From Octopus vulgaris (lineage: Eukaryota), in contig OX597841.1 in NCBI GenBank assembly GCA_951406725.2, positions 12,400,001-12,464,000 on the forward strand: a stretch of DNA of 64,000 nucleotides, in the 5' to 3' direction. A model generated the notes under the pieces. It was not told the origin of the DNA. It ran no database searches and saw only the letters and a program-made list of their open reading frames with translations. The translations under genes were made by a program, and so were the position numbers. Positions 7,511 through 61,241 of this stretch are shown here, one piece after another; positions within the stretch are counted from its first letter, which is position 1, and each line of letters opens with the position of its first letter.

Positions 7511-7625
7511 TATATATATATATATATATATATATATATATATATATATATATATATATGAGAGGATTTGCATCCCCAACCAAGAATTTTTGATGTAACA
7601 CATGTCCTTGTGGAAGCTGTTGTGC

Positions 7626-7703
7626 GCGGCTGAAGAAGGCCACAGACATACATTATGCATTGTTATAAATCTGTCTAATAAAGGCCCGAAACATATGTAC
7701 CGC
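7626..7703 (+). ncRNA. Type I hammerhead ribozyme, extended stem II, in a ~250-bp (TA)n-embedded element (7559-7810)
   Basis: GCGG-CTGAAGA-AGGCC...GGCCC-GAAA-CATATG-TA-CCGC: stem I GCGG/CCGC, canonical core, palindromic stem III ACATATGT, GUA cleavage triplet. Confidence 0.85.
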
Positions 7704-7863
7704 TGAATCCTTCGCATCATGTTTTTATTTTGATCAATTTACTCCACCACCTACACCACCAAACGGTATACACAGGTGCTTATAATTATCAAGTACTCAC
7801 CCCGAATTTCTATATATATATATATATATATATCAGAAAAAAGCAACAAGAATGGATCAATAT

Positions 7864-7950
7864 TTGGGTACAATTGTTTCGTACGAAGACAGCTTTATTA
7901 AGGCTACAAACATTGCAGTAAATATAAGTGACCCGTACTCATCAGCCGAA
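7864..7950 (-). ncRNA. Type I hammerhead ribozyme, extended stem II, in (TA)n-embedded element (7833-8237)
   Basis: Minus: TTCGG-CTGATGA-GTACG...CGTAC-GAAA-CAATTG-TA-CCCAA; perfect 5-bp stem II base, palindromic stem III ACAATTGT. Confidence 0.85.
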
Positions 7951-8840
7951 AAAACATCTGAGTTCTCCAAACATCTAAGGGGGTGATGTTACACTCCTGA
8001 AACATCAGGGATAGTTCTATAAAAATAAGATTTTGGTAACAAATGGACTTAAAATGAAAATGAAAATGAAGATGTAAATCCATCCATATTGAAGAAAGTT
8101 TGATTTCTGGAGACATGAGGAGAGGTATCATACTCACAGAATATGTATTTATCCATATTTAGTCCATAATAAAGTGTGTCTCCTGATGTGTGATGATATT
8201 TTGGTTACATTTCTGAGAATTTCTCCAAACCCCAAACTATATATATATATATATATGTGTATATATATATATATATATATATATATATATATATATATAT
8301 ATATATATATATATATATATGTATATATATATATATGTATATATATGTATATATATATATGTATATATATATATGTATATATATATATATATATGTATAT
8401 ATATGTATATATATATATATGTATATATATATGTATATATATATGTATATATATATATGTATATATATATATATGTATATATATATATGTATATATATAT
8501 ATGTATATTTATATGTATATATATATATATATATATATATATACACACATATATATATGTATATATATATATGTATATATATGTGTATATATATATATGT
8601 GTGTGTTATATATATATATATATATATATATATATATATATATATATATATATACACGACGCGTTTCTTTCAGTAGAAGTTAACTTGATGAACCTTTATT
8701 AGTTTCCTGTAGTGGCCCTTTATGTTAGGGAGCTGTTAGAGTTGGCCCCTTTATTTGTGTGTATTGGTGAGAGGGGAGGGAGTAAGTCTATCTATCTGTC
8801 TGTCTATCTATCTATCTATCTATCTATCTATCTATCTATC

Positions 8841-58003: not shown

Positions 58004-59239
58004 TCAGGTCATCCCGTAAGTTCTGTCTGAATTTTGAATAAAGACAACAAGTGATCAAATGTTATATTTAATTGAAATTTAATCATCAATGTACTTTCCC
58101 TGATTATCTATGACTTCCTTCCATCTATTTACAAGCTTTTTAATCCCATCAATGTAAAACTCTTTTGGTTTCAAAGCTAAGAACTCCTCCTGGCTTGCGA
58201 AAGTTACGTTCCCCAAATGATTCTGTTAACTACGAAACAAATGGTAGTCTGAAGGAGCAAGGTCGGGAGAATAAGGTGGATGAGGAATTTTTTCCCAACC
58301 AAGCTCTTCGATCTTCTATGATGTGATCTTTGCTGTGTGGGGGGGTCGCGCATTGTCCAGATGAAACATCACTCCTTTTCAATTCACTAAAGCGGGTCTT
58401 TTTTTATTCAAAGATTGGTTCAAATACTCTTATTGCTGACAGTAGACGTGAGCATTGATTGTTGCATTTGGTGGTAACAATTCAAAGTGAATTACTCCTT
58501 TGCAATCCCGCCAGATAGAGAGAAGAACCTTTTTCCCATGAAGTTCCCTTCTCAGTTGTGGTTGAGCGTTTTCCTTTTACCAAGCCACTGTTTACGATGT
58601 TTAACATTTCGAATAGAAGATCCATTTTTCATCGCCAGTCACAAGTCTATCCAAAAGGGTGAAATGAGTTCAGAGAATGGAGAGAAGAGCAGATATCAAC
58701 TCGAGATTTGCGGTTATTTCAGACAATTCATGAGGCACCCATTTTCCAATTTTAGGAACCTTTCCAAGTTTGAACTAAGCTTTATTGCCAATTCTTCAAC
58801 TGATAATGCAGAATTTTCTTCAAGTAATGCCTGAAGGAGCTTATCATGAAACTCCACTGGACGTCCTGTTCGATCTTCATCTTCAAAGCTGAAATCTCCA
58901 CTCCTGAATTTTGCAAACCATCTTCTGCAAGTTCTTTCATTCAAGCATTCTTTCCCATAAACTGAGTGTTATGTTTCGAGTTGCTTCGGCTGCAGAGTTT
59001 CCTTTTTGTACTCATAAAGCATTATGTGCCTCGAATGCTCTTTGGATACTTCCATGTTAGAAAGGGTTTTAAGCAAAGAAATTTTAATTCTATTATTTTG
59101 TAAAATAATATTTAATTAGTTTAAATGTACACAAATGCATAAAAATAATTTTTAATTCCATTAGAGATTCTAAAATACTATTAAATTTCATTCAATTTTA
59201 AAAAAGGTAAAATGGCACTGAACTTATCGGATGACCTGA
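58004..59239 (-). mobile_element. Mariner (DD34D-type) DNA transposon, near full-length, inactivated
   Basis: TIRs TCAGGTCATCCCGTAAGTTC / GAACTTATCGGATGACCTGA; transposase relic 59055-58079 with RRWFAKFRSGDFSFEDEDRTGRP, VPHEL, TGDEKW, DNARP, HPPYSPDLAPSDYHLFRS; frameshifts. Confidence 0.93.
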
Positions 59240-60907
59240 TATATATATATACTCTTTTACTCTTTTACTTGTTTCAGTTATTTGACTGCGGCCATGCTGG
59301 AGCACCGCCTTTAATCGAGCAACTCGACCCCGGGACTTATTCTTTTGTAAGCCCAGTACTTATTTTATCGGTCACATATATAAATATGGATATATAAATA
59401 TATATATGTATATATGTATATATATACATATATATGGATATATAGATATATATATGTGTGTATGTATGTATATATATATATATATATATATATATATATA
59501 TATATATATATATTGCTATGATCTGGTTCTTGATATGACTGATTCGATTCCCGTCCTGTGGTTCTTGTGTCGTCTATATGGTGTTTCATGTTCTTGTCCA
59601 TGTCTGTAATTATTTTTACTGTTTACCTATATATATATATATATATATATATATATATATATATATATATATATATATATATGTCTCTGAGTGTGTGTGT
59701 GTGTGTGTGTGTGTGTGTGTGTGTGTGTGTGTGTGTGTGTGTGTGTCCTTGAATAAATCGCTGAAGCACAAGAAAATCTTCCGAGCGGTATTTTTCCTCT
59801 TTTTACATTGTGTGTTCGAATCCCAGCGAAGTCAGCTTTGCCTTTTATCCTTCCGAAGATCAATATAGTACCAGACAAGTTCTGACCATGGCCGGTCCCT
59901 ATTATCAGATTACCCTCTCCCTTCACCATTTCTGCCCCTGTACGTAAACTAAAATCCATTATTTTAACACACCGTATGCTTCAGTCAAGTGTTAATGTTT
60001 TTTCAAATTACGTATTGCTTATCGCGTGCAATCGAACATGCTTATCGCTTGTTTACTGTTTTCCGTGTGTTTACTGTATTTATCGTTATGTTTAGTGTGT
60101 CAATAAAACACAAGGCTTCTATACATAAAATATAGTTTATATGATTTGGAATGTATAAATTATGTACACATCATTGATACGTGCCTCACGGCATGAATGA
60201 ATCTTGTCATCTACGTGCACATCTACATGTCGCATGTGTGTACGTATGTATGTATGTATGTATGTATGTATGTATGTATGTATGTATGTATGCATGTATG
60301 TATGTGTAAGTTACTATATGTGGGCTTTGTATACATATGTATATATATATATATCTTTACTACCCACAAGGGGCTAAACATAGAGAGGACGAACAAGGAC
60401 AGACAAACGGATTAAGTCGATTACATCGACCCCAGTGCGAATCTGGTACTTTTATTTATCGACCCCGAAAGGATGAAAGGCAAAGTCGACCTCGGCGGAA
60501 TTTGAACTCAGAACGTAACGACAGACGAAATACCGCTAAGCATTTCGCCCGGTGCGCTAACGTGTCTGTGTGTCTGTGTGTGTGTGTGTGTGCATACACA
60601 CATATTTTTATGGGTGATACCTTGCATGACCAAAGTCGTAGTAAGGGTCAATCGATAGCGTTGGATGAAGAGAATTGACAAGTGGCCTGATGTTGATGGA
60701 ACCGAAAGATCCAAGACATCCCCATTTTCGCCTGAAAATCGCTGATGATATGTCACTGAGCATCCCTGAGATGCACGTTAGAACTCTCTCTCTTCCCTTT
60801 CCCTCTCTCTCTCTCTTTACCTTTCTCATTTATATATATATATATATATGTGCGTATGGTGTGTGTCGGTATGTGTGTGTGTGTGTGTGTGTGTATGGTG
60901 TTTTTTT

Positions 60908-61116
60908 TTATCTAGTTTCAGCTCACAAGCTGTGGCCATGCTGGGGCACCGCCATTTGGTGTTGCTACATGATTTTACTTCACGAATGTTTTTTATCAAC
61001 TACCATTTGGTGCATGAGAGAGTTCGATGCAGTTGCCCTCATCTGCACCTCCTGTCGTGAAGTTGGTTCATCTGGGACACCTGACAGGAAGAGATCCAGT
61101 TTTATTTTAAAGACGA
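60908..61116 (-). mobile_element. CR1/L2-group LINE 3' end
   Basis: Minus: VFKIKLDLFLSGVPDEPTSRQEVQMRATASNSLMHQ followed by a 3' UTR ending GGCGGTGCCCCAGCATGGCCACAGCTTGTGAGCTGAAACTAGAT(A)n. Confidence 0.8.
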
Positions 61117-61202
61117 GTACATAGGTACAAAACAAATGGAAAAAATAGCAACCAAATGCTAAAAGTGGATTGAAATATTATTTCTTTGTAGCTGAGAAAA
61201 GT

Positions 61203-61241
61203 CCTTGGCCCGGAGTTTCTCGTAATCGTTCGTCAGGCAGT
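61203..61241 (-). ncRNA. Degenerate minimal hammerhead related to 26751
   Basis: Minus: CTGC-CTGACGA-ACG ATTA CGA-GAAA-CTCCGGG-CC; core intact, cleavage triplet mutated. Confidence 0.5.

Follow-up and report, generated by a model that had tools for sequence, protein, structure and literature searches.

Hammerhead ribozyme motifs in (TA)n-rich DNA of Octopus vulgaris probably mark the ends of Hydra and Neptune Penelope-like elements

A stretch of 64,000 nt from Octopus vulgaris (positions 12,400,001-12,464,000 of contig OX597841.1, from a 2.8-Gb assembly in 227 contigs; this whole stretch is called the window) consists to 36% of microsatellites, and between them lie short islands that resemble hammerhead ribozymes. 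What are these islands, and what does the ribozyme do in them? An earlier note had listed 11 full and eight partial sites, mostly in (TA)n, had ascribed them to Penelope-like elements (PLEs) or retrozyme-like derivatives and had proposed that the palindromes of stem III, a different one per group, serve as family-specific dimerization codes. Our analysis makes it very probable that the islands are the 3' terminal repeats of several PLE families of the Hydra and Neptune clades, accompanied by likely nonautonomous miniatures, that they sit mostly in (TA)n and that each bears a minimal type I hammerhead whose predicted cleavage requires a dimer.

Are the motifs real? We used a strict descriptor that required one of the cores CUGANGA, UUGANAA and GUGANCA, 3 bp or more in each of stems I and II, a self-complementary stem III and the UH. 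Because it was written with the 11 sites already known, its count of three matches in the window (7630-7699(+), 15888-15812(-) and 33329-33367(+)) is not blind; 200 island-wise dinucleotide shuffles of the window gave a mean of 0.025 matches and a maximum of 2. Unselected genome sequence provided the blind test and yielded 12 matches in 320 kb (0.225 in shuffled sequence), and a further 200 kb from larger contigs yielded 1 (shuffled, 0.1). Motif frequency is therefore well above that of shuffled sequence (13 in 520 kb versus about 0.3), and 10 of the 11 full sites belong to multicopy families, with stem covariation in two of them, B and D. For these 11 sites the coordinates, the palindromes and the type I architecture had been read correctly, but only 3 pass the strict descriptor, the rest being damaged or variant in the core. 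Rfam did not add to the descriptor result: at gathering level the whole window gave no match and no hammerhead family, the Rfam hammerhead models gave none on islands A and E at E≤10, and a scan at E≤5 was dominated by microRNA matches to microsatellites. That the motifs are chance matches in AT-rich repeats is extremely improbable. A loose motif pattern was indeed not above chance (5 overlapping matches versus 2.2 expected) and several of the partial calls found no support, but the excess of strict matches in the window and in the unselected genome, the B/D covariation and the position of the motifs at PLE ends speak against it, and for the main families it is refuted.

The window is not exceptional in its density of strict motifs, which is 1 per 21 kb here and about 1 per 40 kb in the 520 unselected kb. 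To reach the earlier figure of about one motif per 5 kb, relics have to be included. Extrapolated to the genome, the unselected count corresponds to about 70,000 intact motifs (Poisson range, 37,000 to 120,000), an estimate that is only rough because the two unselected samples differ (12 in 320 kb versus 1 in 200 kb).

If the islands are ends of PLEs, reverse transcriptase (RT) and endonuclease genes should lie upstream, and in fact families A, B, D and E are preceded by Hydra-clade open reading frames (ORFs) and family G by a Neptune-clade one, which bears out the suspected PLE origin and specifies it. Family sizes are given as first-look candidates of genome-wide island queries, of which the best 40 per query were scored. 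Family A (7560-7810(+); 1647 candidates) is the 3' terminal repeat of a young Hydra-clade PLE; its hammerhead (7626-7703) has the core CUGAAGA, the stem III ACAUAUGU and GUA at 7699, and (TA)n begins 111 nt past the predicted cut. Upstream of A lies a 692-aa RT-endonuclease frame (L063), followed by about 1.9 kb of low-complexity sequence, so that the element measures at least 4.3 kb. The protein has ADKT (L072), YRDD, the linker CNCRCASEC, CQLC..E and N..CIH and has no CCHH. Family E (910 candidates for the query at 33175) is represented by one 5'-truncated Hydra-clade PLE at 29015-33459(+), which had been missed as an element; its hammerhead is at 33323-33373, its stem III is a 16-nt near-palindrome and its end at 33459 lies in (TA)n. 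It retains an open RT-endonuclease fragment (29015-30436, 473 aa) and, between ORF and hammerhead, about 2.9 kb of mostly microsatellite-like sequence. The whole of 29015-33459 is 99.6% identical to a 5193-bp tandem unit of pseudo-long terminal repeat (pLTR), ORF and pLTR on contig C1 and is continuous in other loci as well. The E protein has SDKT, RWR, YRDD, CNCHDKTTC, CDLC and CMH, again with no CCHH, and in A and E alike YRDD and IY..YIG stand in a single ORF, that is, an RT with a C-terminal GIY-YIG endonuclease. Families A, E and G are very young, with 99 to 100% identity (A, 100% among the best 40 of 1647). A second copy of E (49066-49187(+)) is 5' truncated, starts inside stem II and is 97.5% identical to 33338-33459.

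Family B (7834-8229(-); 1752 candidates) is the short, tail-less 3' end of a Hydra-clade PLE with a hammerhead at 7864-7950 and the stem III ACAAUUGU; the window copy (7945(-)) has an intact core and a stem I mismatch that most family copies lack. All three extended B loci (L210-L212) have a Hydra endonuclease region upstream, with the linker CNCRIRSRC. The 3' end of family D (15690-16112(-); 4295 candidates; intact hammerhead at 15807-15893; stem III ACGAUCGU) is homologous to that of B, and a Hydra endonuclease C terminus was found upstream in one of three extended loci. Family G (43240-43680(-); 906 candidates for the query at 43290) is the 3' end of a young Neptune-clade PLE; its motif (43310-43351) has a U3:A8 pair, the stem III ACAUGU and a weak stem I. 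At locus L260, G forms a 4723-bp tandem unit with a 781-aa RT plus GIY-YIG ORF that contains GLKF, ADKG, YLDD, CGRPNCGIC (a CX4CxxC linker) and a CxxC within GIY-YIG. Pfam recognized its GIY-YIG domain above the cutoff and RVT_1, at 28.9 bits, just under it; a PDB search with the G protein gave no match. Judged by motifs, A and E are Hydra-clade PLEs, as are B and D on partial evidence, and G is a Neptune-clade PLE, probably distinct from Nematis. Among the homologues of an element protein, the named ones are from Argonauta hians and Octopus bimaculoides.

Some further observations concern these parents. The 3' region of family E at 30438-33175 consists mostly of TATG/TA-like repeats that are common to other copies, and the element therefore spreads sequence resembling its own target. 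Contig sets from four presumed-RNA runs cover the E ORF and terminal repeat and show no joints; loose contig ends lie at the first base of E stem I (33323; L246:5497) in all four runs, although contigs cannot prove ends. At L266:1667-4404 (contig C5, near 50.456 Mb), a B terminal repeat abuts an 806-aa frame of another Hydra family, 48% identical to A over the RT, with no TA spacer, possibly a chimera or the outcome of template switching. The beginning of the Neptune RT frame of G coincides in part with a 400-aa frame at L260:7201-8400(-), which may be a separate ORF1 or a frameshifted N terminus.

How far is such a system already known? Craig et al. 2021 (PMC8557442) described Hydra-1_Obim, a PLE of Octopus bimaculoides with (TA)n preference and a palindromic-stem-III hammerhead, and in the literature searched we found no octopus hammerheads beyond that. 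The same paper defines the Hydra clade by motifs such as those in A, reports (TA)n insertion for Hydra and Neptune PLEs and tabulates stem III palindromes that differ between families. The Hydra families found here agree with its Hydra-clade PLEs in the C-terminal GIY-YIG without CCHH, DKT, the CxCX5C linker, (TA)n insertion and the 3' palindromic-stem-III hammerhead, and the family F motif resembles that of Hydra-2_aMil. Compared with published Hydra elements, which are generally below 3 kb (typical rather than strictly defining), the units in O. vulgaris are longer, 4 to 5 kb with 5193 bp in E, and have long microsatellite-like 3' regions, a stem II of up to 60 nt, many more families per genome and miniature derivatives. 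Family G shares GLKF, DKG, a CX2-5CxxC linker, the CxxC in GIY-YIG, tandem units and microsatellite insertion with Neptune-clade PLEs and differs from those described in its U3:A8 core, its weak stem I and the upstream 400-aa frame of L260. Cervera and de la Peña 2014 (PMC4209133) reported minimal PLE hammerheads with palindromic stem III, acting as dimers, in many variable families with solo and opposite-strand copies. Ours are like these in the short stem I, the extra base before stem II, the palindromic stem III, the U3:A8 variant, the many variable families per genome and the mostly solo occurrence with opposite-strand pairs 100 to 700 bp apart; relative to the variants visible in that source, the palindromes are longer (6 to 16 nt), and the G3:C8 core and the family-fixed U4C and A6U cores are distinct. 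With Anolis Poseidon (PMC11167929) they share AT-rich targets and probably also two RT start sites past the hammerhead and extension of both strands, but there the hammerhead overlaps the ORF start, whereas the ORF of family E starts about 140 nt past the predicted cut.

Is (TA)n really the preferred target? A (TA)4 or longer run was present within 170 nt 3' of the motif in 169 of 188 family loci, a set of best matches that is biased to young complete copies and includes each window copy, against a background of 17% of random positions in the unselected genome and 32% in the window. For C, F and G, the predicted-cut offsets carry a small error of some bases that leaves the 170-nt count unaffected. 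The preference is thus borne out, yet for Hydra and Neptune PLEs it had already been published. Judged from their flanks, 8 of the 11 full sites themselves end 3' in (TA)n, and those at 40061, 53907 and 61203 do not. Copies are 5' truncated to a variable extent, and the 3' ends are fixed at two positions past the predicted cut, +34 and +154 in B and +64 and +102 in G. The PLE "tail" has been attributed to two RT start sites (Frangieh et al. 2024, PMC11167929), and a pair of fixed 3' ends in each family matches it. Inverted partners were seen at 16 of 30 A loci, 12 of 30 B loci and 22 of 25 F loci. The inverted arms of A agree at 222 of 227 subfamily-informative sites (21 loci), and therefore the arms come from one source sequence and not from a pool; two different RNAs per inverted insertion are not supported in A. 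In F, the own arm was closer than the median in 7 cases, tied in 7 and further in 4 (n = 18); in I, it was closer in 5 and tied in 2 (n = 7), leaning to one source.

Stem III had been described as nearly always palindromic, and this holds: a search of 320 unselected kb that did not require a palindrome (stems of at least 4 bp, any spacer) gave nine matches, eight of them with a perfect or near palindrome, compared with 0.23 palindromic and 1.07 other matches in the shuffled control. Stem III palindromy is selected. Does it serve pairing between molecules? In an alignment of 36 B and D copies, one row of which (L024) is unrelated, 93.9% of the stem cells were paired, and none of 500 shuffles reached this value. 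At its third pair, stem III has A-U in 15, G-C in 16 and G-U in 2 of the 36 rows, along the series ACAAUUGU to ACGAUUGU to ACGAUCGU; in a monomer this pair would close a 2-nt loop, which favors pairing between molecules. According to energy models, 6 of 10 motifs (A, B, D, E, F and P2) gain stability as a double hammerhead relative to two monomers in their minimum-energy folds. Luense et al. have reportedly described dimer cleavage of minimal PLE hammerheads.

The idea of a different palindrome for each group, in contrast, failed. Two families have ACGU in common, and ACAUAUGU, ACAAUUGU and ACGAUCGU are each found again in unrelated motifs, which rules out a unique palindrome per family and therefore a unique code. 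The motifs of C and C2 are compatible with each other; A and P2 have the same stem III palindrome but no stem I match, and specificity would therefore need both helices. What stands of the proposed dimerization codes is that palindromy is selected; what does not is their residing in stem III rather than in stems I and III together. An explanation in which the palindrome is a family code that unites two RNAs in one insertion complex, and so produces the head-to-head insertions, would fit the finding that pairing is, for most combinations, better between matched than between mismatched palindromes, that the two members of an inverted pair almost always belong to one family and that A and P2, despite their common palindrome, have no stem I match; in view of the palindromes common to unrelated families, the compatible C/C2 pair and the single source of the A arms, we regard it as improbable. 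Ideas of heterodimers or a dimerization code were not found in the literature searched.

A second group of islands belongs to families of about 150 to 230 nt (F, I, C and C2), which had no ORF in nearly all fetched loci and account for 23 of the 28 matches to nine named families in the 520 unselected kb. Family F (26744-26890(+); 233 candidates) is the right arm of a usually head-to-head element of about 230 bp; its motif (26751-26788) carries U4C, its stem III is ACUCAGAGU, and the family has a palindrome usually centered a few bases upstream of stem I. Family I (39985-40125(-); 2051 candidates; about 210 nt) has a motif at 40060-40110 with the core GUGAACA (G3:C8), the stem III AAUAUU and a stem I of 7 bp family-wide, with one mismatch in the window copy (40103(-)). 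Family C (14204-14362(-); 1260 candidates; mostly about 215 nt) has its hammerhead at 14262-14294 with the stem III ACGU, and the window copy (14291(-)) has an intact core with a changed C11.1; C2, a short element (14426-14609(+)), has its motif at 14482-14517 with an A6U core and the same stem III. A decayed Hydra-like ORF was found 730 nt upstream of C in one of two long loci. F and I begin 9 to 35 nt upstream of the core; that both start just 5' of the motif suggests, with the loose ends of E, a recurrent 5' boundary. In family I (L268-L287), the 5' end UGCAGC is complementary to GCUGCA at the first 3' end, which could close the RNA of the mini-element.

These short families might be ordinary non-long-terminal-repeat retrozymes that spread via circular RNA from tandem arrays, and the earlier label of retrozyme-like derivatives does fit loosely: like non-long-terminal-repeat retrozymes (PMC7229834; bioRxiv 10.64898/2026.07.22.740005), they are 150 to 230 nt long, have no ORF, carry a type I hammerhead and are probably PLE derived, and retrozymes, which include solo monomers, are said to derive from PLE terminal repeats (same preprint). 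Yet the copies lie scattered as monomers or in head-to-head pairs, with PLE tails and two fixed 3' ends, the motifs are minimal rather than canonical and nothing in the window matches an Rfam hammerhead, and no head-to-tail tandem repeat was present in the fetched loci of F, I and C (a genome-wide search was not made). We consider an ordinary retrozyme origin quite improbable and treat the short families as likely PLE miniatures.

The cores of these families deserve attention. The minimal core NUGANNA with a 3:8 pair is present in A, B, C, D, E and I; F (U4C) and C2 (A6U) depart from it, and G has a weak stem I. The changes are fixed in the families: of 44 anchored F copies, 43 have C at position 4, all 43 anchored I copies have G3 and C8, and all 18 anchored G copies have U3:A8, while A6 occurs in 0 of 13 anchored C2 copies, most of which have A6U. 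A 20-mer across the family I core had 5,777 exact matches in the genome (control, 0). Published work shows that the U3:A8 core occurs in nature (PMC4209133, PMC3088659), that U4C reduces hammerhead activity in vitro (PMC3088659) and that G3:C8 is known as a laboratory rescue mutant (PMC11167929, PMC3884650); a natural G3:C8 core was not found in print, though Luense et al. or the supplements of Cervera 2014 may hold such variants. Short ORF-less families with fixed core changes (G3:C8, U4C and A6U) are thus possibly new. If cleavage mattered little, the hammerhead could be kept mainly as a scaffold for folding, RT binding or dimerization. The fixed changes in three short families, the 23 of 28 matches that come from the four short ones, the starts of F and I so close to the core and the finding that anole PLE insertion in vitro was unaffected by hammerhead mutants (PMC11167929) would agree with this. 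But the ORF-linked families keep the canonical core (A, 30/30; B, 30/30; E, 25/25 loci), and the 3:8 pair is kept as C:G, U:A and G:C, which therefore points to selection on the catalytic fold; that cleavage is merely incidental is possible, if unlikely on balance. Still more tentatively, the genome may hold tens of thousands of PLE passengers the size of short interspersed nuclear elements (SINEs), each a hammerhead with two RT start sites, among them a natural G3:C8 family of several thousand copies and families with crippled cores, in which the hammerhead would act as a pairing or recognition scaffold, with stems I and III sorting RNAs by family apart from cleavage.

Several observations weigh against the assignment of the islands to PLE ends and to dimeric hammerheads. 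The ORF link is firm for A, E and G and good for B, but thin for D (1/3 loci) and C (1/2). Pfam found no RT or endonuclease match in the Hydra proteins, and the Hydra class of A and E therefore rests on motifs and 84 homologues. No parent ORF of F, I or C2 was present in the fetched loci, nor did an ORF adjoin 20 position-ordered loci of I; the PLE parentage of F, C2 and I is therefore suggested by shared anatomy. The (TA)n count carries the bias given above, and in family I only 6 of 14 loci had the repeat. The compensatory change in B/D is a single event between two families, the double hammerhead was less stable than the monomers for C, C2, G and I, and a 4-bp stem III is possible within a monomer of E.

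Even so, PLE insertion offers a coherent account of the islands. It joins what we observed (family membership, RT-endonuclease ORFs for five families, 5' truncation, two 3' ends, head-to-head copies and (TA)n) with steps taken by inference from the PLE literature ((TA)n nicking, two-site priming, early stop and dimer cleavage of tandem transcripts). The GIY-YIG endonuclease would nick AT-rich DNA, and the RT would prime at two sites 30 to 150 nt downstream of the hammerhead, one per target strand, as published PLE work implies. Most copies would terminate early, and because of this only the hammerhead-bearing end would be deposited. In tandem transcripts, two hammerheads would pair via the stem III palindrome, exchange stem I and thereby divide the multimer into its units by cleavage. 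The miniatures would consist of the hammerhead region and the two RT start sites only and would depend on protein made by other elements; the core changes fixed in them suggest that cleavage may be weak or dispensable for spread.

The remaining sites of the window are relics or lack support. Among the eight partial calls, two (49066 and 54080) represent real families in truncated form and two (33840 and 36720) keep a 3' half, but 14980, 16275, 52690 and 53120 did not hold up: 14980 is single copy, and the other three are multicopy repeats with no convincing complete motif. The motif of an old, decayed family at 33836-33903(-) retains GAA-ACACGUGU-A without forming stem I (40 matches, about 75 to 91% identity, in the 3' half), and at 36690-36740(-) the 3' half of a hammerhead-like motif, 5' truncated in (CA)n, has two related copies in the fetched loci. 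A 5'-truncated end of family P2 (54032-54095(-)) is reduced to ACAUAUGU-C plus the 3' strand of stem I, the complete motif being present in L123 and L205. An older copy related to C (53840-54002(-); motif 53908-53940, U4C) is 76% identical to 14223-14354, and a decayed F-like motif (61203-61240(-)) has an intact core, no palindrome and no UH, with 3 matches including itself (2 weak relatives). Other hammerhead families in the unselected genome (L178, L191, L193, L201, L186 and L196) have the palindromes ACGCGU and AAUU (both with U3:A8 cores), ACCAAAUUGGU and AUCACGGUGAU. The window also contains the 3' end of a non-long-terminal-repeat retrotransposon with a C-terminal CxxC..H..C knuckle, presumably Tx1/L1-like, at 8842-10004, 23687-24170 and 49478-49636, flanked by (TATC)n and so a second microsatellite-associated element, and at least three abundant SINE-like families with about 10 window copies each (e.g., 530-706, 788-937 and 5579-5963).

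What this locus reveals is a known system with new octopus members of the Hydra and Neptune PLEs and their hammerheads, the basic arrangement of which is already published; miniatures whose cores are altered, together with a comparative indication of dimer pairing, would be modest additions. The accessible text of a recent Octopus repeat annotation (PMC13282606) does not mention ribozymes, and an estimated 70,000 or so intact motifs make for a dense ribozyme landscape. In one in vitro study, the PLE hammerhead was dispensable for insertion (PMC11167929). With young families that have intact cores, tandem loci that resemble masters and miniatures with altered cores in one genome, dimer dependence, cross-family pairing and the need for cleavage become directly testable.

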